DNA from: Raphidiopsis brookii D9
Lineage (GTDB): Bacteria; Cyanobacteriota; Cyanobacteriia; Cyanobacteriales; Nostocaceae
Assembly (NCBI GenBank): GCA_000175855.1
Contig: ACYB01000035.1
Coordinates: 420,001 to 452,000 of the forward strand
Direction: 5' to 3'
Length of the DNA stretch: 32,000 nucleotides
Made by a program: the position numbers and the translations under genes. The number at the start of each line of letters is the position of its first letter. The stretch's first letter is position 1. The notes below the pieces were generated by a model. That model was given only the letters and a program-made list of their open reading frames with translations, ran no database searches and was not told the DNA's origin. This document shows positions 1 to 14,765 of the stretch, piece after piece.

Positions 1-105
1 AGGGAAATGCGATCAGACATTAGGGAAATGCAATCAGAAATTAGGGAAATGCAATCAGAAATTAGGGAGATACAATCAGAAGTAAGAGAAATACAACTGG
101 ATGTG
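1..105. repeat. 21-bp tandem repeat, 5 units (1-21, 22-42, 43-63, 64-84, 85-105); units 2 and 3 are identical and a degenerate sixth unit runs to 126
   Basis: Direct reading gives agggaaatgcaatcagaaatt repeated head to tail. Each unit encodes one heptad of the partial CDS. Confidence 0.85.
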
Positions 106-177
106 AGGGGTTTACAAACTGAAAATCGCCGCATTTTAGATGTTCTGCAAAATGTTCCACCAGATAAATATGAGTAA
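1..177 (+). CDS. 3' end of a heptad-repeat (coiled-coil) protein; partial, the start lies upstream of the window
   Basis: Frame +1 is open from base 1 to TAA at 175-177. It translates to REMRSDI REMQSEI REMQSEI REIQSEV REIQLDV RGLQTEN RRILDVLQNVPPDKYE, with strict 7-residue periodicity. Confidence 0.5.
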   Translation, partial: REMRSDIREMQSEIREMQSEIREIQSEVREIQLDVRGLQTENRRILDVLQNVPPDKYE

Positions 178-183
178 GTGGGC

Positions 184-1131
184 TCATAGAAGATGCAAAA
201 CCGCCTTACCAGCAAAACTTCTGTCCATCAACTTTTGTGCTATGTCGGCAATTTCGTTCCATGACGCTTCTATCTCAATATGGGGGCGTAATTGGGCAGA
301 TTCCACCAGTTCTAACAACCATCTTAGCCCTATAGCCGCTGGTTCTTGTTTTAATTCATGGAATACTATTAATCCATATATATTCGCACCACCAAGAGCA
401 TAAAGACTGCCTGCATTAAAAGTTACTTCCCTTCCCCCAGTAGTTCCAAATACGACAGCTGTTCCATTAGTGTCCAGAAAATTGAGAGCTTGACCAAGAA
501 TATTACCACCTACAGAGTCTACAATTAAGTGATAGGGTCCATATACTTGAGCAGAGGAAATGTCGTCACCAGTAACCACGTGACGAGATCCCGCTTGTTT
601 GACTACAGATTCATACTTAGATTGTCGTAGATGGGCAACCACTTTTGCTCCGCTCAATCGGGCCAGCTGAATGGCAAAGTTACCAACTCCACCAGATGCA
701 CCAGTAATTAACACAGGTTTATTTAGTAGAAAACCACCTTTTTTCATGATATGGTAAGCTGTTAAACCTGCTATCGGTAGGGTAGCAGCTTGGGTAAATG
801 ATACAGAGTGTGGTAATTCGGCCAGAGAATGGGTGGGTACTGGGACTAACTCTCCCCATGCACCACTGGAAACATAACCTACCACCCGTGTTCCCACACC
901 AGGACCAGAACCATCAGTAGCGGATTTTTCCACAGTACCAGCTAAATCCCAACCAGGACGCCAACCAGGGGTAGCCGTACTAGCACGTCTGAGTTCACCG
1001 CGATTTAATGAAGTTGATGCGACTCTGATCAAAGCTTCATTCCTAGTGGGTGTAGGTACTGGGACTTCTCTTATTGTTAAGCGCCCTGGTATATTAGGGT
1101 CAACTACAATAGCACGCATTCTATCACTCAT
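184..1131 (-). CDS. NADPH:quinone oxidoreductase / zinc-type alcohol dehydrogenase-like protein (MDR superfamily)
   Basis: 315-aa ORF with an ATG start (cat at 1129-1131). It has an N-terminal GroES-like segment and the Rossmann motif ITGASGGVGNFAIQLARLSGAKVVA typical of zeta-crystallin-type quinone reductases. Confidence 0.85.
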   Translation of the reverse strand: MSDRMRAIVVDPNIPGRLTIREVPVPTPTRNEALIRVASTSLNRGELRRASTATPGWRPGWDLAGTVEKSATDGSGPGVGTRVVGYVSSGAWGELVPVPTHSLAELPHSVSFTQAATLPIAGLTAYHIMKKGGFLLNKPVLITGASGGVGNFAIQLARLSGAKVVAHLRQSKYESVVKQAGSRHVVTGDDISSAQVYGPYHLIVDSVGGNILGQALNFLDTNGTAVVFGTTGGREVTFNAGSLYALGGANIYGLIVFHELKQEPAAIGLRWLLELVESAQLRPHIEIEASWNEIADIAQKLMDRSFAGKAVLHLL

Positions 1132-1136
1132 ACTCT

Positions 1137-1152
1137 ATTATACTATATTATA
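1137..1152 (-). promoter_or_regulatory. Two TATAAT -10-like hexamers (minus strand: 1147-1152 and 1137-1142) inside a 10-bp x3 AT-rich tandem (1131-1160), directly upstream of the oxidoreductase ATG
   Basis: The minus strand reads ttttgagtaatagTATAATatagTATAATagagtATG. The proximal hexamer ends 5 nt before the ATG and no Shine-Dalgarno sequence is visible. Confidence 0.3.
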
Positions 1153-1175
1153 CTATTACTCAAAAATAAGATACA

Positions 1176-2552
1176 TCATTTTTCATTTCTTGCCAATTTA
1201 TTTGGTATTCCTTCACAACCACCAGGTATGGTAGTTCTGGATTTCTCTCCACACCAAGCACAACAATAGTAACGGGTTGATTCTGACATTCTTTGCACAC
1301 CAGTAAAATCCACGTTCTCTACCACTGCTCCCGTATGCTCCCCTGTTTGATAGTTAGGAGGTTCAGTACGACTGCGAGGTGAAGCTTGCTCTGCTGGTCC
1401 ATAAAACAAACGAGTACCATTTAAATCTGCTTGGCTAATATTTGCCTCATATAGTATGGCACGAGATAGGTTAGCCTTGACTAAATCGCAACCACTTAGG
1501 TTAGCATGAACTAAATTCACTTCCGTTAAGTCTGTCCAGCGTAAATCAGTATTTGATAAATCAGAACCCGCTAACATTACTCCTAAATCTATAACCCTGG
1601 TTCCATATAATCTGTCTTCAGCATAACCACCCATACCATCAAGAATGGGTCTACCTAGACGACGGTCACGTTGTAAAGGAGTGAGGAGTTTAGAGCGAGA
1701 CAGAAATCTGAGTATTTTGGCTTTTCCACTAGCATCTACACTACTAAGAATTGCAGAGGTGCGCCCTTCTGCGATCGCTCTTTCTTGGGGCCAATCTTCT
1801 AATAGTCCTTCCTCATCTAAGACTAAGTCAGAAATTCCTTGAAAGTAGGAATCTATGGTTTGTTGTTGGGTAATAATATTTTGCTGAACGGTCAGTAAAT
1901 TTTGTTGAATAGTTAGATCTTTGGAAATTATATATTGTCTCCAGGCCACGTAAACGGCAATTATGGCTATAAAAATTTGACCCAAAGCTCCAAACCAATC
2001 CGCTACACTGCCTAAAATATCCCAATTAATTTTCTGAGTTCCCTTGATGAGAACATTACCTAAACCAAAGAATTTTAAGCTGCCAATAATGGCAAATGTA
2101 AGGGCAACAAAACCTAAAAAAACCTTCTGATCTTGCGGAGAAACCCACTCTTTAATAATTGCTCTTAACCAGGGTAAAAGTAGTTTTAAGCATAGGAAAA
2201 TAGTCAATATGGTGCTGATGACACCGAGAAAACGATTATTAATAGTCGCACTGATAATAGTTAAGGCGATCGCCAGGAGGGTAAAGATAAAATCTTGAGA
2301 ATTAGCACCAGAGGTCAGGGTAGTGTTGTGAGAGAAAATAGAGGTAGATTTTTTGAGAAAATTGGTATATTTTGGGGATTGTAAGAAGGAAATAGCAGTC
2401 AGGGTCTGTTGAGCAAATAAACGTTCTGAAGCCAGTGTATTTTCACCCGCCTTACCATCAAAATCATCTGGATGTAATTGATGATCTACTAGATGGCTAC
2501 CTGATAAACTCTGAGAATCAGGACTTGAATTTGAACTTGAATCCACACTCAT
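1176..2552 (-). CDS. Membrane-anchored pentapeptide-repeat protein
   Basis: 458 aa with an ATG start. Central hydrophobic helices (FIFTLLAIALTIISA, VISTILTIFLCLKLLL, FLGFVALTFAIIGSL, FGALGQIFIAIIAVYVAW) are followed by a pentapeptide-repeat block (DLSNTDLRWTDLTEVNLVHANLSGCDLVKANLSRAILYEANISQADLNGTRL). The tail is Cys-rich (YYCCAWCG...GGCEGIPNKL). Confidence 0.8.
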   Translation of the reverse strand: MSVDSSSNSSPDSQSLSGSHLVDHQLHPDDFDGKAGENTLASERLFAQQTLTAISFLQSPKYTNFLKKSTSIFSHNTTLTSGANSQDFIFTLLAIALTIISATINNRFLGVISTILTIFLCLKLLLPWLRAIIKEWVSPQDQKVFLGFVALTFAIIGSLKFFGLGNVLIKGTQKINWDILGSVADWFGALGQIFIAIIAVYVAWRQYIISKDLTIQQNLLTVQQNIITQQQTIDSYFQGISDLVLDEEGLLEDWPQERAIAEGRTSAILSSVDASGKAKILRFLSRSKLLTPLQRDRRLGRPILDGMGGYAEDRLYGTRVIDLGVMLAGSDLSNTDLRWTDLTEVNLVHANLSGCDLVKANLSRAILYEANISQADLNGTRLFYGPAEQASPRSRTEPPNYQTGEHTGAVVENVDFTGVQRMSESTRYYCCAWCGEKSRTTIPGGCEGIPNKLARNEK

Positions 2553-2635
2553 TACTTGCTCAAACCTCAGAAAACATTAAATGGTAAATATATGGAGATA
2601 AATAGTAGATAATGTGCCCCATTCCCCCATCTTCA

Positions 2636-3682
<1,047 letters not shown>

Positions 3683-3924
3683 TTAGATTTAATTGTAGCA
3701 AGAAGTGCATCAAATGTAAAGCCTTACTATATGGGAAGCGAGCTTCCATCCCATAATTTCCGATCATTCATGTAAAATTATTGACTAAATACAATAAAAA
3801 TGATATTGTTCCTAATGTACCTTTTAGGTGTTTTTAATAGTTTTGTTTAAATCTTCATTTTTCAAGGTAGAAAATAAAAGATAATTAGTCCTATTATGGT
3901 TGATTTAAATACCTCATTGGCTGA

Positions 3925-4719
3925 TTGGACAATCATAAAATTATGCTAGGAGATGATATTTTGCGTAGTTGTAGTATGGTTATTTTTCGACGCTTGATTA
4001 CATCTGGGCTGATTGGTTTCCTGGTAAGCAGCTGTGCTGACGCAGCCAAATCTTCTACGGAATATACAAAACAAATTGTTCAGGAAAATAACGTAGCACG
4101 ACTGATGGCACAGGTTCAGGATAGCCAAAAAGTCTCAAATCTATTGAGTCAGGGCAATGGTTTCCTAGACAGTGGACGCTATGAAGAAGCACTTCAGCTC
4201 TATAACCGGGCAATTGAAATTGAAAAGGATAGCGTACCGTCATGGGTAAATAGGGGAAATGCCCTACTCTCCCTAAAACGCTACCAGGAAGCATTGGAAT
4301 CTTATAACCAGGCGATCGCCCTTCGTCCTAACAAAAATGAAGCCTGGTACAATCGAGGTAATGCCCTATCAGCATTAGGCCGTTACGAAGAAGCAATAAG
4401 GTCTTATAATGAGTCCATAGTGATTGACCCAAATAAATTTGAGGCATGGATAAACAAGGGAATTGCCTTGACAAAACTACAACGTTACCAAGAAGGTTTA
4501 GCATCTTACAACCAAGCAATTAGCATCAACCCAAATTTTCCCACCGCATATTATAATAAAGCATGTAATTATGCTTTACAGAAGCAGGTAAACCTAGCAG
4601 TGGAGTCATTAGCTAAAGCTATTAAGATAGACGGTCAAAAATACACTCAATTGGCACGGGTAGATAAAGACTTTGCTAAGATTAGCGATAACAGGGACTT
4701 TCAAGAATTACTGAAATAA
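3925..4719 (+). CDS. TPR-repeat protein, probably a lipoprotein
   Basis: The longest ORF starts at TTG 3925. ATG 3943 or ATG 3976 are more likely starts. The 3976 start gives MVIFRRLITSGLIGFLVSSC, with an n-region, an h-region and a lipobox-like VSSC. About five 34-aa TPR units follow (AxxxYNxAIxxxPxxxxAWxNRGxAL). Confidence 0.8.
   Translation: MDNHKIMLGDDILRSCSMVIFRRLITSGLIGFLVSSCADAAKSSTEYTKQIVQENNVARLMAQVQDSQKVSNLLSQGNGFLDSGRYEEALQLYNRAIEIEKDSVPSWVNRGNALLSLKRYQEALESYNQAIALRPNKNEAWYNRGNALSALGRYEEAIRSYNESIVIDPNKFEAWINKGIALTKLQRYQEGLASYNQAISINPNFPTAYYNKACNYALQKQVNLAVESLAKAIKIDGQKYTQLARVDKDFAKISDNRDFQELLK
4634..4709 (+). repeat. Left copy of the 76-bp direct repeat; it forms the functional 3' end of the TPR gene
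   Basis: gtcaaaaatacactcaattggcacGggtagataaagactttgctaagattagcgataacagggaCtttcaAgaatt matches 12878-12953 at 73 of 76 positions. Confidence 0.9.
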
Positions 4720-4918
4720 AGGCTAGAGTGAAAACCTACCTACCCTGCTTATTAACTGGTTTGGTTGAGTCAGTTCGATCTATAATAGATAAAGGGATGC
4801 GGGAGAGAAGTCAAAGCGCTAGGAGCACTCAACCAGTTAGGTTTACAGACGTCCTTAGTGCGACACTGGTTATGTAGGTTTTTTTCTCCTAACAGTTTAT
4901 TAAAGGTTCAGTCATCAT

Positions 4919-6352
4919 CTAGCTATCAACAATTGTATCTGGTAACTCCTCTTCTACAAGACGCAGATGGGGATAAAAATAGCAAATAAAAGTAAAAAGG
5001 ATGCTAAATAGTCCCATGATGACAAACATTAAACCAATACCGCGACCATGGCCAATACCAATTATTTCTCCGATGGTGTTTGCTGCTGGTCCGTCAGCTT
5101 GCATAAATGGTTCAAATAGTCGATCAGCTAGTGGTCCTGCTAGCAGAAAAGAAAGGGGTAGAAAACCTTGAGTAACTGCTATGCGGAAGGCAAAGACTTT
5201 TCCTTGCACTTCTGGAGCAACTTTCTTTTGATAAATTACTTGGATTGCACCATTAACAATGGGGACCATAAAAAATATAAAGAAGTCGGAGATGGTAAAC
5301 AGAATTGGGTTAGGACGTAACCCGGCTAAAATATAGAATATACCTAAGAAAAACATTGAGATAAAGATGAGGTTCATTTGGCGCTTTGGTCCTCCCCAGA
5401 TGCTGATGATAAAACTGCTAACTAACATTCCAGAGCTTGCTATGGAAGAGATTGTACCTAGTGCTTCTGTGGAAGCAAAGGAAAGGACTAGAGGTGTGGT
5501 GAGAGCTTCAGCACCACCAATAAGAAAGTTGGTGATTGCAACAAAAACCACCAAGCCAATTAGTCCAGGTCTCTCGATAAAATAATGCCATCCAAAGGAT
5601 AATTCTTGCCAGAATGAAGAGAATAAACCAGCTTCCTCGGTTTCAGTTTCTTTGGTTTTAACTTCACGGAAATTCACCACTAATAAGCAAAGCAAGGCAA
5701 AACACAAAGTAGATAAATCAATTAGAACTACTCCGGGAATTTGAACATTCACTAAGAGTATAGTTGCTACCACTGGCGAGAGAATCTCTGCAACAGCTAA
5801 TCTAATTTGCGTCATGGAACTGGCGCGACCCAGTTGTTCTTTTGGGACTAATAATGTGGTAGCTGAAGAATAAGCGAGGGCTTGAAATGCACTAAAGCTA
5901 GAATTGAAGGCACTAATTAGACACAGAGTCCACACTTCTAGGTGGTTATTCATAAATAACCAGGCAATGGTTAAGGTACACAAACCAGCACAGAAGTCAC
6001 TAATAATCATAATCCAGCGTCGGGGAAAGCGGTCAACAACTACTCCCGCAATGGGAGAGATAACAATCGTAGGTAAAGTCGTTGATAGAATTAGGAGGGT
6101 GAATTGGGTAGCTGAATTAGTATGCTGGTAAAGCCAAATACTTAAAGCAAAACTGGTCATGCGAGAGCCAACCAGAGATAATACTTGACTAATCCAGATG
6201 AGGATAAAAACGCTCATGCTGGGAGCTTTCTCTGTTTCCTGATTGGAGAATTCTCCAGTCCACTTAAATAAAGATGATGCAAAACTGGGTTTTTGTTTTA
6301 ATTCTGTTGAGTCTTTATCTAACATAGCAACAGTTATTACTGTATATTTCAA
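4919..6352 (-). CDS. MFS transporter (DHA3 / EntS-like efflux type), co-oriented with and 53 bp downstream of the NRPS
   Basis: 477-aa ORF that is hydrophobic throughout, with about 12 predicted helices. FILIWISQVLSLVGSRMTSFALSIWLY resembles the TM1 signature of NRPS-associated MFS_3 exporters, and VVDRFPRRWIMI resembles the loop 2-3 motif. The start is uncertain: TTG 6352, ATG 6325 or ATG 6217. Confidence 0.8.
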   Translation of the reverse strand: MKYTVITVAMLDKDSTELKQKPSFASSLFKWTGEFSNQETEKAPSMSVFILIWISQVLSLVGSRMTSFALSIWLYQHTNSATQFTLLILSTTLPTIVISPIAGVVVDRFPRRWIMIISDFCAGLCTLTIAWLFMNNHLEVWTLCLISAFNSSFSAFQALAYSSATTLLVPKEQLGRASSMTQIRLAVAEILSPVVATILLVNVQIPGVVLIDLSTLCFALLCLLVVNFREVKTKETETEEAGLFSSFWQELSFGWHYFIERPGLIGLVVFVAITNFLIGGAEALTTPLVLSFASTEALGTISSIASSGMLVSSFIISIWGGPKRQMNLIFISMFFLGIFYILAGLRPNPILFTISDFFIFFMVPIVNGAIQVIYQKKVAPEVQGKVFAFRIAVTQGFLPLSFLLAGPLADRLFEPFMQADGPAANTIGEIIGIGHGRGIGLMFVIMGLFSILFTFICYFYPHLRLVEEELPDTIVDS

Positions 6353-6405
6353 TATTTTCAGTTAGCAAGGCAATTTGGCAATTAAAAACAGCTGTGGAAT
6401 TGTAA

Positions 6406-9400
6406 TTATCCAATTGGGCTGTTTGGATGTTGAACAAGTTTTTGGAGAATTTCTTGGTAATAACTAAACATAAACTCGATGGCATCATCTGTAAATAGCT
6501 CCCTGCTGTAGAAAACCTTAATTTCCATGGTGGGATTATTTACTGAAGGTGAGGAAACATAAATCTCTAAAGGAATTTCTTCATCCCACAAGCTGCGATC
6601 GCGCTTAATTGATACAAATTCAAAATCCAACATCCGGTTGTGCCAATTTTGCGGAGGTAACATAGTTAGGGATGTAGAGATATTCAGTGGTTGTTTACTG
6701 GTAACAGTGTCAATGACTGTTTGACAAGCAATTTCTTTATTGTTGATTGCTTCCATTAGGGTTTGTTGGACTTGTTGTAGAAGAGTAAGTCCGGTCTCTT
6801 CAGATGAGAAATGAGAGTGCAAAATTACATCTTTGATGAAGCAACCAAGCATTGTTTCAGTTTTCACTGAACTACGATTACCAACTGTTGTGATCACTAA
6901 AATATCGTCTTTCCCACTATAATTAAACAAAAGTATATTCACAGCAGTGAGGATAATCACAAAGATAGTAACTTTTTGCTCCAGGCTGAAGGCTTGAATT
7001 GATCTAACCATACTGACTGGTAAAACTATGGAATAAACAGATGCACTGCTACTCACCTGTGGTGGAATGTTAGAAACATTATGAGATATTGGTGAGGTAT
7101 TGGTTAATTTCTCTACCCAATAAGCCAACTGCTTTTCTATTACCTTTTCATTAAAGCACTGATGTTGCCAGAGGGTAAATCGGCATAATGACCATCCATC
7201 CGTAATGATATGGTGCATGTTTATTGTTAACCAATATTCCTTTTGATTTACTTGCAATAACTTTGTCTTAATCAGAGGAAGTGAACCTAGATCAAAATGA
7301 TGCTCGTATTCCAACGCAGCGAGTCTCTCAGCTTCAGATGTTCTTTTTGTATTAGGCAAGTTTTGTAAGTCTATAATCTCTAGTGGTATAGTCAGAAGTG
7401 GAGTAATTACTTGTACAGGTTGACCTTCTACTAGAGTAAAAGCCGTGCGTAGTATTTCATGACGACGAATTATTTCATTGAAGCTAGACTCCAACACAGT
7501 TGCAGAAAGAGAGCCTGTAAAACGTAAAGTAACAAAGCTATTGTAAGCGTAATTGTCAGGAGCTAATTGCTGTGAATGCCATATAGACTCCTGTGCAAAA
7601 GACAGTGGGATATATGTGTTTCGTACTTGAGGGATAAGAGGTGGTAAGGTGTCAAACGTCATGCTACCTGCACTCTGCTGCTCTACCTCCAGCTGATGAA
7701 CATTGATTACTTGGCTAAGTTGAACTATGGTGGGTGCTTTAAATAGAGAACGCAAGGGAAGTTCGAGGGACAAACTTTCCCGAATTCGAGATATTACAGA
7801 TGTTGCTAATAAAGAATGTCCTCCCAATTCGAAAAAGTTATCATAAATCCCGACTTTTTCCAGACCTAAGACGTTGGCGATAATATGGGCAATGGTTTCT
7901 TCTGTGGGATTTCTGGGAGCTACAAAGACTGTTTGAGGATTGTCTACTATGGGTATAGGTAGGGCGCGACGGTCTATTTTTCCGTTGGGATTCAGGGGAA
8001 AGGCGTTGAGGATAACAAATGCCAAGGGAATCATATATTCGGGCAAACGTTCTTTGAGAAACTGACGCAACTCACTACTGCTAAGGGTTAAACTTTCACT
8101 AACAATATAAGCAGTGAGATACTTATTGCCTGGATTATCTTCGCGGACAATTACTACTACCTGCTTCACTTGGGGATGTTGGGTTAATACTGTCTCAATT
8201 TCTCCTAATTCTATGCGGAATCCACGAATTTTAACTTGGTGGTCGACGCGTCCGATAAATTCAATGTTTCCATCGGGTAAAAAGCGTGCCAAATCCCCTG
8301 TTTTATAAAGTCGATCATTTGCTACAAAAGGATTAGGAAGAAATCGCTCAGATGTCAATTCGGGACGATTTAAGTAACCTATTGCTAAACCTGTACCTCC
8401 AAGGTAGAGTTCTCCAGACACACCTATGGGAACCGGTTGCAGATGGCGATCTAGAATGTAAACTTGGGTATTGGCGATCGCCCGACCAATGGGAACTGTT
8501 TTTGCTTTTGGTTCTATTTGCTGGATATAATAACAGGTAGAAATGGTTGTATTTTCAGTAGGTCCGTAAGCATGCAACAATTTTTGAGGACCATCTACTG
8601 CTAACAAGTGTCTCACCCACCGAGTATCAACAGCTTCACCACCAAATAATAAGTAGTGTAAATGTCGAAATGCCATCGGTACTTGTTGCACCATTTGGTT
8701 AAATAGTGCGGTCGTGATCATCAAGATGGTAATACCCTCATTTTGTAAGCTAGTGGCAAAATCTCGTGGTGATAGTATGGTTTCTCTATCGAAAATTGCT
8801 ACTTTTGCACCATTGAGTAATGCTCCCCAAATTTCACAGGTAGCAACGTCAAAGGAATTATTAGAAACTTGTGCAATTACATCTGTAGGTTGCAAGGTTA
8901 TATAGTCAGTATTGACTACTAATCGCACCACCCCGCAATGAGGAACCATCACACCTTTAGGTTGACCCGTTGACCCTGATGTGTAAATAACATAAGCCAA
9001 ATTATCTGGGGTAGTATCGCAGTTTAAGTTCTGTTGGTTCTTTTGGGCAATGACGGACCAGTCCCGGTCTAAACAAATCTGCTCAACATCAGTCAGTTTT
9101 CCCCCTAGCTGCTGCTCTGTCAAAATCAAAAAGGCTTTTGCATCCTGCAGCATAAATGCCAGGCGATCGCTCGGATAGGTGGGATCTAATGGTAAATAAG
9201 CACCTCCAGCTTTCAGAATCCCTAGCATGGCGATGATGATTTTAGGCGATCGCTCTAAATAAATTCCCACCAAAGTTTGTGCACTAACACCCAGAAACTG
9301 CAAATAGTGAGCTAGTTGATTAGCTCGATTATTTAACTCCCGATAGGTAACTTGTTGATTTTCCCATTGAACAGCGATCGCATTTGGTGTCCTTTCTACT

Positions 9401-12400
9401 TGTTGCTCAAATAATTGATGAATACATTGGTGAGGATAATCAGTTTGCGTGTTATTCCATTCCACAAGTAGCTGATGTTTTTGCGATGCTGAGAGTAATG
9501 GTAATTTTCCCACCTGTTCATCGGGATTAGTAACAATAGCCTCCACCAAAGTTTGAAAATTATCTACCATCCGGGCAATGGTTGTAGCGTCAAACAAATT
9601 GGCGTTATATTCAAAGGCTCCTATGAGTTCCAAATTTGCTTCTTGCATCGACAGGGTTAAATCAAACGTCGCTCCTGCTGTGGGTCTATTTAATTCAATT
9701 TGGGTTACATTCAAACCTGGTAAGTTGAATTTTTCCTGGGGAGAATTTTGTAATACAAACATTACCTGAAACAGGGGACTCAGATTTTTTTGCCGTTTGG
9801 GTTGTAGAGCTTCAACTAGTATATCAAAAGGTAACTCTTGGTGAACATAACCATCAAGAGAAACCTGTCGCACCTGGGATAATAGTTGTTTAAAGGTGGG
9901 ATTGTTTTCTAAGCGAGTACGTAAAACTAAAGTGTTGACAAAAAAACCAATTAATGACTCGAGTGCTTGACGATTGCGGTTAGTAATAGGGGAGCCAATA
10001 ATAATATCTTCTTGGCCAGTGTAACGATAAAGAAAGGTAACAAAAGCCGCTTGCAGAGTCATAAATAGGGAAGTACCCGACTTCTGACTTAATATTTTCA
10101 GTTTGTTAGTCAGGTGATTACCCAATCTAAACCGGTGGATACTACCGTGAAATGTTTCAATAGTCGAACGGGGGTAATCTGTTGGTAATTCTGTGATTGG
10201 TGGAGCATCTGCTAACTGTTTTTTCCAATAGCTTATCTGGGTATTAATAACATCATTTTGCAACCCTTGACGTTGCCAGTAAGCATAATCTGCATACTGA
10301 ACTGGCAAGTTTGCCAGGGGAGAATTGGCATATAAACTCGACAATTCTTGGAAGAAAATTGCTACTGACCAAGCATCGGAGATTATGTGGTGCATGGTGA
10401 CTAGCAAAATATGGGAATTTGATTCCAGGCGAATCAGTTTTACTCTTAGTAGAGGGGCTTGGCTTAAATCAAAAGCTTCTGTATATTCAGTGGTAATCAA
10501 CCGTTGTAATTCTGCCTCTCTTGCAACTTCTGTTAGGGTTTGTAAATCTACTAATGGTAAGGTAAATGGTAAAGTTTCTGCAATAAATTGCACTGGTTTT
10601 CCTTCTGATATACCAAAAGAAGTACGCAAAGTTTCGTGACGTTGAATAATTGACTGCACTGCTTGTTGAAGTGCCATTAAATTCAGGGAACCAACTAACC
10701 GTAAAGCCCTAGTAATATTGTAAGCTGCATTTGCTCCTTCCATTTGGTCAACAATCCAAAATCTCTGTTGAATCAAAGATAAAGGTGATTCTGCAGTTCG
10801 GGAAACTGGCTGTAAAACTGAGAGGGAATTAGTGGGATGAAAATCATCCCGAAAAGTTGTAACTTTTTCACTTAAACTAGCTATGGTTGGGGCTTCAAAT
10901 AAAATGGTGATGGATAGCTCCAAAGATAGAGCTTCACGCAATCTTGATATAACTAAACTGGCAAGTAGAGAATGTCCCCCCAATTCTAAAAAGTTGTCAT
11001 AAATGCCCACTTTCTCTAGTCCTAAAACTTCTGCCCAAATGTTAGCTATTAGTTCTTCTTGGGGGTTACGGGGTGCAACAAAGTTACCAATTGTAGCAGA
11101 TAGATTTGGTGCGGGTAAATTATTCCTGTCTAACTTTCCGTTGGGTAATACTGGCAGTTTTTCTATCAACACAAAGGCATTAGGAATCATATAATCTGGT
11201 AATTTATGCTCTATAAAATTCCGAATTTCTGCCAAATCTAAGGTTTGAGTGTTAGGCACAATATAGGCAACCAATCGCTGATCTCCCGGTATATCCTCTC
11301 GAAGGCTAATTGCACCTTCTTTAACTGAGGGATGTAGTTTTAATATGGCTTCGATTTCTTCCAGTTCTACGCGCATTCCTCGGATATTTGCCTGAAAGTC
11401 AATCCGACCAAGAATTTCTAAATTACCATCTTGCGAGTGGCGAGCTATATCCCCTGTCTTGAAAAGTTTTTGCTGAGGATTAAAGGGATTATTAATAAAT
11501 TTTTCGGCATTGGCTTGGGCGCGGTTTAAATAACCACGTGCTAACGTACCACCAGCTATATGTAGTTCTCCGGATTCTCCATTTTTCACGGGTTCCAATT
11601 GGGAGTTGAGGACGTAAACCTGCTGCATGTCTTGGAGGGGATTACCAACAGGAACATATCCTTGTTCAGTATCGCAGTTTTCAGGAATGGGATAAAAAGC
11701 ATTACCAATACTTTCCGTTTGACCCAAGATATTAAAAAATTGAGGTGGGGTTTGAAATAGGTTACGTAATTTCTTAATTAGCTGATAAGGTAGTAACTCC
11801 CCGCCAAATATCAGGTATTTTAGCTTTGATTCCCCTATAGCTCTTGTATATTTTTTGTCTAAACTTTCCAAAGCCATAAGTCCATAACGCCACACTGAGG
11901 GCACACCATCACAGATAGTGATTTCTTGTGTTTCAATTAGTTCAAATAACCTAAGAGGATCTCTGGTTTGTTCACGTGTAGCAATAACAATGGCTGCACC
12001 TTGGGATAAGGGTAGGAATAGTTGTCTGACTGAAGCAGTAAATGAGAAAGATGCTATATGCAGGTAAATATCTTGGTTATCAACTGGGATTATGTTAGTT
12101 ATACCCTGAAGATAATTCACAATACTGGCATGGGGCATTTGTACTCCTTTTGGCTTACCAGTAGAGCCAGAAGTATATATTAAGTAGGCCAGATTCTCTG
12201 AGGTAACACTACAGCTGGGACTATCTTGACTTTGTTGCTCAATTTTTTCCCATTCCGCATCTAAACATAAGACTGTGGCCTTGATAACAGGTAGTGCTTC
12301 TAACCACTGACTTTCAGTTAAAACTACCTTTGGACTGGCATCCTCTAGCATAAATGCTAACCTTTCCTGGGGATAAGCAGGGTCCAAAGGAACGTAAGCA

Positions 12401-12645
12401 CCACCCGCTTTGAGGATACCCATAATTCCAATAACTATTTCTATAGAACGTGTTACACAAAGACCTACAAACACCTCTGGTCCGACACCAATTGATTGCA
12501 AATAATGTGCTAGCTGATTGGCTTTACAGTTTAATTCTCCATAGGTCAACTGCTTATTTTCAAAGATTATTGCTACTGCATCAGGCGCTTTTTTTACTTG
12601 CTGCATAAACAGCTCGTTAATAGACTTGTTTTGAGAATATATCAT
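6406..12645 (-). CDS. Bimodular non-ribosomal peptide synthetase, domain order A-T-C-A-T-C (no TE, R or E domain)
   Basis: 2079 aa with an ATG start (cat at 12643-12645). Two sets of adenylation core motifs are present ([16 protein letters not shown] / [16 protein letters not shown], FKTGD / YKTGD, PNGKLDR / PNGKIDR). There are two carrier motifs (LGGHSL, twice) and two condensation His motifs ([20 protein letters not shown]). Confidence 0.93.
   Translation of the reverse strand: [2079 protein letters not shown]
6409..7614 (-). other. Terminal condensation-like domain C2, aa ~1678-2079, shortened and partly degenerate
   Basis: [19 protein letters not shown] and [10 protein letters not shown] (Met1810 codon at 7216-7218) are intact. 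The segment between the His motif and the WQ...LAYW motif is 29 aa versus 52 aa in C1. The C5-equivalent reads [13 protein letters not shown] rather than IGxFVNTxxxR. Confidence 0.7.
7708..7917 (-). other. Carrier (T/PCP) domain 2, aa ~1577-1646
   Basis: [20 protein letters not shown]. The Ser1611 codon is at 7813-7815. Confidence 0.85.
7960..9423 (-). other. NRPS adenylation domain A2 (canonical amino-acid type), aa ~1075-1562
   Basis: [24 protein letters not shown] (Asp present), [32 protein letters not shown] and PNGKIDR. Confidence 0.85.
9511..10794 (-). other. Condensation domain C1, aa ~618-1045
   Basis: C1 is SLIQQRFW, C2 is [9 protein letters not shown], C3 is [10 protein letters not shown] (His752 codon at 10390-10392) and C5 is [13 protein letters not shown]. 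No epimerisation-type motifs are present. Confidence 0.8.
10861..11073 (-). other. Carrier (T/PCP) domain 1, aa ~525-595
   Basis: [20 protein letters not shown]. The phosphopantetheine-attachment Ser559 codon is at 10969-10971. Confidence 0.85.
11116..12618 (-). other. NRPS adenylation domain A1 (starter, non-canonical), aa ~10-510
   Basis: A3 is [16 protein letters not shown]. The A4 region is [12 protein letters not shown], with Thr203 (codon 12037-12039) where Asp235 normally sits. A5 is NILGQTE (11713-11724) instead of NxYGPTE. A7 is FKTGD, A8 is [20 protein letters not shown] and A10 is PNGKLDR. Confidence 0.8.
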
Positions 12646-12877
12646 AACTCTAATACCTTAGCCAAAAAAGGGTATCAAAAAGCAGGGATGACTTACTTAA
12701 CTCTACAAACTAACAGCAGTTTTATTTCTGTACCAAACAAATAGCTCCAGATACCAGTTCCTAAACCCGTGGCTGTAGTAATAATTATTACTCCCACAAG
12801 TAACTCAACCGGGTGGGTTCGATATACAGTCAATGGTGTGATTACTTCAGCAGAGTGGTGCACCTTTAAGATGCAGC

Positions 12878-12953
12878 GTCAAAAATACACTCAATTGGCA
12901 CGAGTAGATAAAGACTTTGCTAAGATTAGCGATAACAGGGAGTTTCAGGAATT
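12878..12953 (+). repeat. Right copy of the 76-bp direct repeat
   Basis: Identical to 4634-4709 except at 3 positions (offsets 25, 64 and 70). The two copies are 8244 bp apart in the same orientation. Confidence 0.9.
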
Positions 12954-12972
12954 GTTAATATACAGTGATTAA
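12878..12972 (+). pseudogene. Orphan 3' fragment of a TPR gene (the tail only, no TPR body)
   Basis: It translates in frame to QKYTQLARVDKDFAKISDNREFQELLIYSD*, against QKYTQLARVDKDFAKISDNRDFQELLK* at the end of the intact gene at 3925-4719. The upstream part of the track ORF 12769-12972 (GTG start) has no TPR signature. Confidence 0.7.
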
Positions 12973-13000
12973 ACCATTATTCCCTCTCCCCTGCTCCCCC

Positions 13001-14722
13001 CTAAGCTGGATAAATCCTCAACCTCCTATTTGGTTCCTCCCCAAAACTATGGGACTTCAATCGATAATGCTCCACTAACTCATGCTGCATCTTACGCACA
13101 TGGGCAGAACGAGGTAACAACTCTACCGGTTGACTCTTGGGAATGACAATTTGTTCAACTGCTAATCTCGCCTCCTCTAAAGCGTCAATTTCATCATCAC
13201 TACCCTCATGTAATAATAGTTGCAACTCACAATCTTCTCCCAAATCCAAATCATCCATATTTAATAATCTTCTCAAACCACGACTAATTTGGGGAATAGC
13301 ACTGGATTTAATTACATGTATGGGTAAATGACGAGACTTCGCTAATTGCCTCAGTTTTGCGTGATTTTTAACATGGGAGCGCAAAGCTAAAATTGCATCT
13401 GCTCCATCAATATCCTTTGTTAAAGCAACAGGTAACTTCAACAACTCAATTACATGTTCCAACTGATGACGACTCACTCCATAGGGATAAACATGCAAAG
13501 GTAAATCTTCCCCATTTGGACCTGCTGATCTAATTTTACCCAAGTTAAAACTGTCACCGTGGTCAAAAGACTCATCCAACAACCGGTCAAATTCACTGGT
13601 TGTTCCCCGTTCCGGAGACAAAGGGGGTAAAGCTACCATCTGACCAGAAGCACGCCAACCATTTACCTGTTTAATTGCTAAAGACTCTTCTTCACTTGCT
13701 AAACCACTTCCATAACCATTCACCACTGTTAATGGTCGAGCAATGGAAACTTTCCCCTGTTCATCCACCGTTCGAGTTTGAGGATTGGGTTGGCGTCCTC
13801 TTAATAAAGTATCAACTGTCTCAGCTACGCTTTCATGTACCACCCAACGCTCCCGCTCCAACATTTCTACAGCAATTTCAAAAGTAGGGGGCGCCTTCCT
13901 TTCCAGTACGGTTTTTTGCGATCTACGTCTTCTAGCTTCGTCATCTCCTAGAGTTACTGCTTGAATACCACCCACCAAATCCGAAAGAGTCGGGTTTTTG
14001 ATTAGGTTCTCAATTTGATTTCCGTGAGCAGTACCCACTAATTGCACCCCTCTTTCCGCAATTGTCCGTGATGCTAGAGCCTCCAACTCCGTACCAATTT
14101 CATCTATAATTATTACCTCTGGCATGTGGTTTTCCACCGCCTCAATCATTACCTGATGTTGTAATTCCGGTCTAGCTACCTGCATTCTTCGAGCGCGACC
14201 AATGGCTGGATGGGCTATGTCACCATCTCCAGCAATTTCATTGGAAGTGTCAATAATAATTACTCTCTTATGCAGATCATCGGCTAATACACGAGCAATT
14301 TCCCGCAAAGCTGTTGTTTTACCAACCCCTGGACGACCTAACATGAGGATTGATTTACCCGTTTCTACTAAATCTCGGATCATCCCAATAGTACCAAACA
14401 CGGCTCGACCTACACGGCAAGTTAAGCCAATAATTTTACCATTGCGATTGCGTATGGCACTGATACGATGTAAAGTTTGCTCAATACCAGCTCGATTATC
14501 TCCGCCAAAATTTCCTACTCGTTGAATACAATCATCTATTTGGGACTGGGTAATGGGGGACTGACTTAAATACTCAGCAGCACCCGGAAACCGAGCTTCT
14601 GGGAGACGCCCTAAATCCAACACCACTTCTACTAAATTATCCCTTTGGGAATGATATTGCAGTTGTTTTTCCAGGTCTTGGGGTAAAATTTCCAGTAACT
14701 TTTGCAGGTCTGTAATCGTCAT
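13001..14722 (-). CDS. Ycf45-like AAA ATPase (SpoIIIAA-type P-loop) with a C-terminal R3H nucleic-acid-binding domain
   Basis: Walker A is GRPGVGKTTALREIARVL and Walker B is VIIIDEIG. The C-terminal R3H-like motif is HELVEHYRLKSHSFGEEPNRRLRIYP. I prefer the start at ATG 14722 (MTITDLQKLLEILP) because the longer ORF to 14812 overlaps the upstream gene. Confidence 0.8.
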   Translation of the reverse strand: MTITDLQKLLEILPQDLEKQLQYHSQRDNLVEVVLDLGRLPEARFPGAAEYLSQSPITQSQIDDCIQRVGNFGGDNRAGIEQTLHRISAIRNRNGKIIGLTCRVGRAVFGTIGMIRDLVETGKSILMLGRPGVGKTTALREIARVLADDLHKRVIIIDTSNEIAGDGDIAHPAIGRARRMQVARPELQHQVMIEAVENHMPEVIIIDEIGTELEALASRTIAERGVQLVGTAHGNQIENLIKNPTLSDLVGGIQAVTLGDDEARRRRSQKTVLERKAPPTFEIAVEMLERERWVVHESVAETVDTLLRGRQPNPQTRTVDEQGKVSIARPLTVVNGYGSGLASEEESLAIKQVNGWRASGQMVALPPLSPERGTTSEFDRLLDESFDHGDSFNLGKIRSAGPNGEDLPLHVYPYGVSRHQLEHVIELLKLPVALTKDIDGADAILALRSHVKNHAKLRQLAKSRHLPIHVIKSSAIPQISRGLRRLLNMDDLDLGEDCELQLLLHEGSDDEIDALEEARLAVEQIVIPKSQPVELLPRSAHVRKMQHELVEHYRLKSHSFGEEPNRRLRIYPA

Positions 14723-14765
14723 GCTTTCTATGGTGGTGACGTTTTTAGAGATAACAAATGAGCTA

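Follow-up and report, generated by a model that had tools for sequence, protein, structure and literature searches.

A TPR-derived direct repeat around an NRPS1-type cassette in Raphidiopsis brookii D9

Islands that carry an integrase are found at the 3′ ends of genes, classically those for tRNA or tmRNA, and restore their target with an island-borne copy of its end. In a 32,000-nt stretch of the Raphidiopsis brookii D9 genome (the window, meaning this whole stretch; coordinates are window positions unless another locus is named, L with a number denoting a compared locus and P with a number a database protein), a nonribosomal peptide synthetase (NRPS) gene and a transporter gene of the major facilitator superfamily (MFS) lie between a tetratricopeptide repeat (TPR) gene and a displaced copy of its 3′ end, here called TPR′. 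The locus resembles integrase-borne islands in having direct repeats around a strain-specific cargo, one being an intact gene end and the other an orphan, and in the presence of empty sites in relatives. It differs from them in that there is no recombinase, the repeat ends at different points in different strains, the duplication would originally have spanned about 0.4 kb instead of a short core, and no clear compositional anomaly was seen. It differs from an insertion sequence (IS) or composite transposon in that the window has no transposase and the cassette ends carry no inverted repeats. Campbell-type insertion-duplication, or homology-facilitated illegitimate recombination, leaves an insert between direct repeats of a stretch of the target gene, and RecA-type recombination can delete the insert again. 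The cassette likewise lies between direct repeats, TPR and TPR′, and one database protein, P0400, would match the predicted deletion product if it is not an assembly chimera, whereas a circular intermediate, a donor and the first event were unobserved and the present repeat is only a remnant.

The cargo itself has a described counterpart. The consulted passages of Sinha et al. (2014, BMC Genomics 15:83, PMC3922686) report a cluster "NRPS1" with an NRPS, an MFS_1 transporter and a sterol desaturase that varies among strains of Cylindrospermopsis raciborskii, being intact in some and truncated in others, CS-505 included. The same passages give the R. brookii D9 NRPS as 92% similar to NRPS1 and state that the authors thought the cluster horizontally acquired; no mention of TPR-derived flanking repeats was found in them. 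To judge from its gene content, the cassette of the window is this cryptic, strain-variable cluster of Cylindrospermopsis/Raphidiopsis: its NRPS, MFS transporter and hydroxylase remnant form the same gene set, the sterol desaturase belonging to the fatty acid (FA)-hydroxylase family. It differs from NRPS1 in that only 169 bp of the hydroxylase gene are left and 29 aa are missing from the terminal C domain. In the searched passages of Stucken et al. (2010, PMC2821919), no classical islands were found in these genomes, and the cyr toxin cluster within the hyp cluster offers a likeness, since it is a biosynthetic cluster present or absent at a conserved locus with frequent rearrangement and without classical island hallmarks. 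The present locus differs from cyr/hyp as portrayed there in that part of the flanking gene persists in duplicate as a scar and the neighboring block has since been exchanged; those passages hold no description of a TPR-derived scar. We consider it likely that the repeat is what is left of an eroded duplicate, at least 0.4 kb long, of the TPR 3′ half, which arose together with or around the NRPS1 operon and was later rearranged and trimmed.

The repeat pair, the TPR gene and the empty site

The features of the locus were as follows.

3943..4719, plus strand (alternative start 3976): intact TPR gene, probable lipoprotein (open reading frame (ORF), Pfam TPR matches, orthologues)
4622..4721, plus strand (core 4634-4709): left copy of the repeat, the genuine 3′ end of the TPR gene (repeat alignment, shuffles)
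4919..6352, minus strand: MFS transporter, last gene of the cassette operon (Pfam MFS_1/MFS_3; adjacent to the NRPS in L081, L101 and L103)
6406..12645, minus strand: two-module NRPS, A-T-C-A-T-C (Pfam)
12698..12866, minus strand: internal remnant of an FA-hydroxylase/sterol-desaturase gene, codons 170-226 of 335, first gene of the cassette operon (nucleotide identity to L081, tblastn)
12866..12965, plus strand (core 12878-12953): orphan TPR′ tail, the right copy of the repeat (repeat alignment; identical in L101, there 9 nt longer on the 5′ side)
12966..12986, no strand: transition from the TPR′ tail to the ycf45 3′ flank, exact breakpoint not resolvable (start of L088 homology)
13001..14728, minus strand, as the NRPS: ycf45-like AAA/R3H gene, start of the lepB-ldpA-ycf45 synteny block (Pfam)

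The 76-mer at 4634-4709 was found again at 12878-12953 on the same strand with 73 of 76 positions identical (three mismatches), as an earlier note made from the letters alone had reported, and the number of such matches expected by chance was 0.00 in dinucleotide shuffles. Ungapped extension gave a pair of 100 nt (4622-4721 versus 12866-12965) with 88% identity, the orphan differing from the resident TPR tail at 12 of 100 positions; the next-largest repeat families in the window, at most 38 nt long with ~71% identity, were far behind. The note had assigned the left copy to the last ~25 codons of an intact TPR gene, which agreed with the ORF at 3943/3976-4719 and its Pfam TPR matches, and had called the right copy an orphan tail with no TPR body upstream, which also held: the tail has a decayed stop codon (TAA to TAC) and lies inside a chimeric 67-aa ORF (12769-12972), ~35 nt short of the ycf45-like stop at 13001-13003. 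Of the weaker similarity claimed on both sides of the core, the 'ttaagat' on the left proved to be part of the TPR-derived segment, while that on the right toward the ycf45 stop was no better than chance (4720-4800 versus 12966-13046, local alignment p ~0.25-0.55). The statement that only the NRPS and MFS genes lie between the copies had to be corrected for the hydroxylase fragment at 12698-12866. Dispersal of the repeat, which the note had named as a refuting result, was not confirmed: a 43-mer taken from it occurred in two copies in L101, in one copy in each of five other loci, in none of the remaining 98 loci and nowhere in IMG/VR, with the source genome represented by the window alone. Scans for Rfam families, tRNAs and promoters or terminators found nothing relevant at either copy.

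A metagenome scan for the repeat returned a single short TPR contig, L104 (JGI contig Ga0208089_1009295). It carries the TPR gene and the first 154 nt downstream, then parts from both L081 and the window at window position 4873, which is 46 nt short of the MFS stop, and its last 204 nt (1417-1620) had no match among the sequences compared; it is either a variant arrangement or a chimera.

The TPR product has 258 or 247 aa depending on the start codon, gave many Pfam TPR matches and is encoded by the last gene of a conserved pentapeptide-POR-TPR block. Protein search and gene context identified orthologues of 95-60% identity with the same upstream neighbors in Raphidiopsis/Cylindrospermopsis, Okeanomitos and Anabaena, and among these genomes several unrelated types of sequence follow the TPR stop. 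The gene order in the window is ADH (minus), pentapeptide-repeat protein (minus), POR-like SDR (minus), TPR (plus), MFS (minus), NRPS (minus), hydroxylase remnant, orphan tail and ycf45-like/ldpA/lepB (minus), followed by housekeeping genes to the window end. Relatives without the cassette at the TPR site were C. raciborskii-type contigs, Raphidiopsis curvata and Cylindrospermopsis curvispora, and nucleotide homology to the cassette-free Raphidiopsis/Cylindrospermopsis relatives ended at 4720, one base past the TPR stop. An empty site with a single TPR gene was present in the C. raciborskii-type contigs L089-L096, which reach at most 415 nt past the stop. The right neighbor there is a gene for an RTX-type secreted protein, not ycf45; its flank begins 13 nt after the TPR stop by BLAST (7 nt by eye) and is 86.8% identical to the flank that follows the TPR′ piece of L081 described below. 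Thus the empty site that the earlier note had suggested looking for exists, without the adjacency of TPR and ycf45 that was to go with it. The further claim that the housekeeping flanks would be contiguous without the cassette failed in every relative examined: the TPR neighbor at the empty site is the RTX-type gene, and in Raphidiopsis sp. BLCC-F218 the neighbor of ycf45 is a GntR gene with a phn operon.

Two observations concern assemblies of this region. A ~500-nt RTX-like C-terminal module is common to three different large genes for secreted phosphatases or nucleases (L097 13572-14054, 16063-16598 and 18984-19511; L089 10790-11191; L081 18193-18783), and this shared module is probably the reason why C. 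raciborskii assemblies break 100-400 nt after TPR. Partial TPR genes stand at contig ends in several NCBI assemblies (P0396, P0398 and P0401 from C. raciborskii CS-506_A/B/C, and P0397 from KL1), the reading frame of CS-506_A departing from the TPR sequence at about residue 110, which suggests further disruption or repeats inside TPR in other strains.

Differing junctions and the probable extent of the second TPR copy

L101, an independent 133-kb contig, has the same order as the window (lepB-ldpA-ycf45-orphan-NRPS-MFS-TPR), and its orphan tail and orphan-ycf45 junction are identical to those of the window. Its hydroxylase remnant corresponds to L081 17029-17211, versus L081 17307-17475 in the window, and its TPR-derived segment starts at TPR coordinate 4613, versus 4622 in the window, that is, 9 nt further upstream. 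Neither structure can have given rise to the other, and the two must share an ancestor that retained larger parts of both the hydroxylase gene and TPR′. In view of these differences, the left edge of the repeat is a secondary deletion junction with microhomology and not an att boundary. Indeed, when read against L081, all of the junctions carried microhomology of 1-3 nt: T/TT at 12866, about 2 nt at 12698, TA at 7187/7188 in the NRPS, and CT and ATT in L101, with 1-2 nt at the left junctions of the window and L101. Given this shared microhomology, the repeat size of 76-100 nt is an accident of deletion and not a property of the founding event.

L081, an 89-kb contig that is 96-98.5% identical to the window over 1-12699, has the order TPR-MFS-NRPS followed by an intact FA-hydroxylase gene of 335 aa. 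On the 3′ side of the hydroxylase gene lies a 77-nt TPR piece (L081 18095-18171, gene nt 369-445, 93.5% identical to the TPR gene of L081), and 16 to 21 nt beyond it begins the 3′ end of a large gene for an RTX/choice-of-anchor secreted protein. The piece had no significant extension in either direction, and no significant TPR similarity was found 5′ of gene nt 369. Taken together, the tail in the window and L101 and the piece in L081 indicate that TPR′ once ran from about nt 369 to the stop; the right copy of the repeat would thus be the pseudogene stump of a longer second copy of the TPR 3′ half, extending at least from gene nt 369 to the stop (nt 369-777, ~410 bp). The 5′ limit of TPR′ in L081 (18095) coincides with a HIP1 palindrome, GCGATCGC, of the TPR gene (window 4312-4319), which is degenerate (GTGATCGC) in the L081 TPR′ copy.

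These junctions bear on the primary model of the earlier note, in which an island with its own copy of the target 3′ end had inserted and the mobilisation machinery was lost or located elsewhere; this would make the 76-bp repeats attL and attR and the TPR 3′ end the target of an integrase. Part of that footprint stands: there is a structural scar with an NRPS cassette between TPR and a displaced part of its 3′ end, and there are cassette-free relatives. The direct repeats, one of which completes the target gene, the empty sites, and the start of two different cargos within 1-2 nt of the TPR stop would all suit an integrase. A site-specific att does not fit, in that 76-100 bp is not the unit of duplication and the boundaries are not the same in the window as in L101. 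In both loci the right copy starts at a deletion junction within a hydroxylase remnant, and this junction differs from one to the other; the TPR′ piece of L081 lies about 230 nt upstream of any such core. As the note itself had observed, no integrase, transposase or tRNA gene was present in the window, nor any Rfam family (Pfam scans of the scanned ORFs, including all of those in and beside the cassette; tRNA and Rfam scans); no integrase or recombinase was among the genes called in L081 and L101, and a repeat search found no inverted repeats at the cassette ends. Nor was there a clear compositional signature: the GC content of the cassette was 0.37-0.43 versus 0.37-0.45 elsewhere in the window, its GC at third codon positions (GC3) and HIP1 density were unremarkable, and its tetranucleotide distance, ranking 3 of 48, was only at the upper end of the range. 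The integrase reading is largely refuted by the non-conserved repeat boundaries, and we regard it as very improbable.

The same comparison bears on a second possibility, that about 100 nt of TPR was copied as templated filler into a break-repair junction between the hydroxylase and ycf45 flanks and that no second TPR copy ever existed. The position of the orphan exactly between two synteny blocks and the 1-2 nt of microhomology at its left edge would be expected of such filler. L101, which shares the orphan-ycf45 junction yet has another left junction and 9 further nt of TPR, would not, nor would the other TPR piece that stands in L081 beside the ancestral TPR flank. The 12 differences in 100 from the resident tail and the outgroup-like edges of the orphan also argue against a recent copy. 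As the window and L101 share the right junction but not the left, the templated filler was rejected; we hold it to be highly unlikely.

The orphan tail is composed as a mosaic, with ~66 nt at its center that hardly differ from the resident TPR tail and with edges (ATG CAG CGT; CAG GAA TTG TT) that have the states of R. curvata, C. curvispora and more distant orthologues. Database proteins pointed in a similar direction. P0391, found on six JGI contigs, has 132 aa equal to TPR codons 127 to the end with Met in place of Leu127; the underlying CTG to ATG change at codon 127 is common to P0391 and the TPR′ piece of L081, and a derived Lys of P0391 recurs in the TPR of its own lineage. This suggests that P0391 is an intact long TPR′ that survives in some strains and has been homogenised with the resident TPR by gene conversion. 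P0400, from a 1144-bp JGI metagenome contig, is a full-length TPR protein that ends in the orphan tail (...NREFQELLIYSD); as far as residue 240 it matches P0390 without a difference, after which the orphan tail (...DNREFQELLIYSD) takes over. P0400 could be the expected product of recombination between the repeats that deletes the cassette, or else an assembly chimera. The two TPR copies therefore seem, from these sequences, to have exchanged sequence by gene conversion. Dating of the duplication from the divergence between TPR and TPR′ (6.5-8%) was dropped, as P0391 and the mosaic orphan indicate such conversion.

The site in C. curvispora (L097, CP060822, 10778-13600) holds a different cargo. 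After the TPR stop there is 1.85 kb with an AAA_16-like ORF and Cas12f/TnpB-like remnants, then a 54-nt TPR′ piece (L097 12627-12680, gene nt 632-685), separated by 64 unrelated nt from an IS1 that sits, with the 8-bp target duplication GGTAATCT, in the ancestral RTX-gene flank. The IS1 and the TnpB remnants are confined to this site.

How the repeats first arose can be considered in the light of these data. In a Campbell-type event, a circular cassette with about 0.4 kb of the TPR 3′ half would have entered by a single RecA-dependent crossover inside TPR, giving TPR-cassette-TPR′. This is a candidate origin within the duplication model and equals the homologous-recombination fallback of the earlier note, which is still tenable; excision and re-integration would need no dedicated recombinase. 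It would account for direct repeats of an estimated length of at least 410 bp (100 nt of which are left in the window), for the resemblance of P0400 to an excision or deletion product, for the derived residues shared by the long TPR′ that P0391 suggests and its own TPR, which imply ongoing recombination between the copies, and for the TPR′ piece that also follows the different cargo in C. curvispora. It needs a donor in which TPR already stood next to the cassette, which leaves the first event unexplained, and neither a donor nor a circular form was observed. Compared with the resident tail, the orphan looks older at its edges and is near-identical in its middle, a pattern that gene conversion explains equally well. 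We regard this origin as possible but less likely than not.

A wider proposal, which we find rather doubtful, is that the TPR 3′ end is a recurrent, recombinase-free cassette-exchange site in Raphidiopsis/Cylindrospermopsis, with cargos bracketed by TPR and TPR′. The cargos would be the NRPS1 operon here and the AAA_16-like ORF with TnpB remnants in C. curvispora; gene conversion would keep the repeats alike, and host homologous recombination would excise a cargo, leaving a P0400-like product, and perhaps re-insert it, between strains.

TPR′ pieces in three genomes and with two different cargos would also be expected if two TPR genes had stood in tandem beforehand, the cassette having landed between them and the downstream one having decayed, and gene conversion could mask the age of the copy. 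Against such a paralogue, no second TPR copy was found in the C. raciborskii-type contigs (up to 415 nt past the stop), no TPR′ was found over 6-10 kb in R. curvata, Okeanomitos or Anabaena WFMT, and no TPR′ was detectable 5′ of gene nt 369 in L081. This explanation is, in our estimation, distinctly unlikely.

Decay of the NRPS cassette

The trio FA-hydroxylase, NRPS and MFS was intact in this order in L081 and in the distant cyanobacterium Aerosakkonemataceae BLCC-F154 (L103), and hydroxylase and NRPS stood side by side in L102. Judging from this conservation, the cassette was originally a three-gene operon, FA-hydroxylase to NRPS to MFS. In the window, the first gene is represented by the 169-bp remnant that abuts the orphan. 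The remnant showed 98.8% nucleotide identity to L081 17307-17475, inside the intact PF04116 gene, and 94.7% by tblastn; the sequence equivalent to L081 16850-17306 is absent on its left. The NRPS of the window has 2079 aa, versus 2108 aa in L081 from the same start. The difference is an in-frame deletion of 87 nt (29 aa) at about 7187/7188, directly after the HHxxxDG motif of the terminal C domain, which was seen against both L081 and L101 and has TA microhomology; it probably inactivates this domain. With the first gene and the upstream region lost and 29 residues missing from the terminal C domain, the cassette is a cluster now decaying in the window.

NRPS orthologues in C. raciborskii and Raphidiopsis sp. 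BLCC-F218 were ~90-96% identical, and the best matches outside the clade were to Oscillatoriales (73-78%), versus 66-70% for Nostocales. P0242 was 90% identical to the NRPS of the window, and the named members of its 90%-identity cluster were C. raciborskii. The NRPS cluster comprises many C. raciborskii strains together with BLCC-F218, with members of 929-2112 aa that are often truncated (929-1819 aa). Exact look-ups returned no entry for the NRPS of the window or for the 258-aa TPR protein.

The ycf45-like gene and the NRPS gene are on the same strand, the NRPS lying 355 nt downstream (12645-13001), and a simple scan found no terminator-like site between them. With its own first gene and upstream region gone, the NRPS-MFS pair might be transcribed by read-through from ldpA-ycf45.

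The ycf45 flank and a proposed history

The ycf45-like product was 97% identical to P0121 over 575 aa, and the lepB-ldpA-ycf45 block was conserved in 80 cyanobacterial loci. Homology to BLCC-F218 (L088), the closest cassette-distant relative, ran colinearly from about 12971-12975 to 23679 with 94.3% identity, so that the orphan tail (12866 to about 12965) stands exactly between two synteny blocks. In BLCC-F218, GntR and the phn operon come after ycf45, and the orphan tail is absent. As ycf45 has this other neighbor and the homology of the window begins only at about 12971, ycf45 is, on the comparison of these flanks, a secondary and not the original neighbor of TPR′. A search for the GntR/phn proteins of BLCC-F218, aimed at polarising the ycf45 flank, gave no match in any compared locus. 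Neither TPR nor the cassette was found downstream of ycf45 among L001-L030 (weak TPR matches in L004 only); the ycf45 scan of GTDB genomes returned relatives of at most 85% identity, which are uninformative on close strains.

From the anatomy of the locus, the junctions that differ from strain to strain, the empty site and the absence of mobility genes, we infer an order of events and a mechanism for the duplication. The ancestral arrangement would have been TPR facing a convergent RTX gene. A duplicative event would then have set the three-gene operon directly behind the TPR stop, with ~0.4 kb from the 3′ half of TPR remaining on the far side, so that TPR and TPR′ formed direct repeats around FA-hydroxylase, NRPS and MFS, between TPR and the RTX-type gene. 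In the sub-lineage of the window and L101, the flank beyond TPR′ would have been swapped for the ycf45-ldpA-lepB block, with the junction no more than about 20 nt from the decayed TPR′ stop. Deletions that occurred independently, with 1-3 nt of microhomology, would have taken away the greater part of the hydroxylase gene together with the 5′ part of TPR′, leaving the 100-nt tail, and the window would have acquired the 87-nt in-frame deletion in the terminal C domain of the NRPS. The duplication most likely goes back to an insertion or translocation of the duplicative kind in a polyploid cell, one chromosome copy recombining with another illegitimately or with the help of homology. This would not imply a dedicated recombinase, and TPR and TPR′ would still be able to recombine and delete the cassette.

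Several points weigh against this history. The tail of the window and the piece of L081 do not overlap, so that a single ancestral TPR′ is a matter of parsimony and not a demonstration. P0391 and P0400 come from short metagenome contigs, with P0400 perhaps chimeric as noted above. The NRPS is present in C. raciborskii strains with an empty-site-type TPR allele, CHAB3438 for example, which places the cassette elsewhere in those genomes; by this evidence the event may have been a relocation of the cassette within the clade, and the "empty" site itself could be a product of deletion between TPR and TPR′. Finally, the local identities between L081 and L101 are closer than those of either to the window, yet L101 has the ycf45 junction of the window, and inter-strain recombination has to be assumed to reconcile the two.

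With its partial TPR duplicate and its later trimming, the locus agrees with insertion-duplication of a generic kind and subsequent decay; it is an ordinary, though well-documented, scar of rearrangement that leaves the known mechanisms of mobile elements unchanged. It shows, across several strains, how a cryptic biosynthetic cassette of the bloom-forming Raphidiopsis/Cylindrospermopsis would have been installed beside a conserved gene, reshuffled and eroded by small deletions, at the cost of the hydroxylase, the promoter and an undamaged NRPS domain. A short and tidy direct repeat can look like an att site and yet be the stump of a longer duplication, which calls for caution when islands are called from single genomes. 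The TPR/TPR′ repeats also predict spontaneous loss of the cassette, and would explain assembly breaks inside or just after the TPR gene.

At the far end of the left block, the window starts with three 21-nt tandem units (1-63). The segment 15-177 has several paralogous copies in relatives (L089 5426-5905; L097 4867-5609), in which small tandem ORFs, encoding hypothetical proteins of 93-115 aa, stand upstream of the ADH gene.

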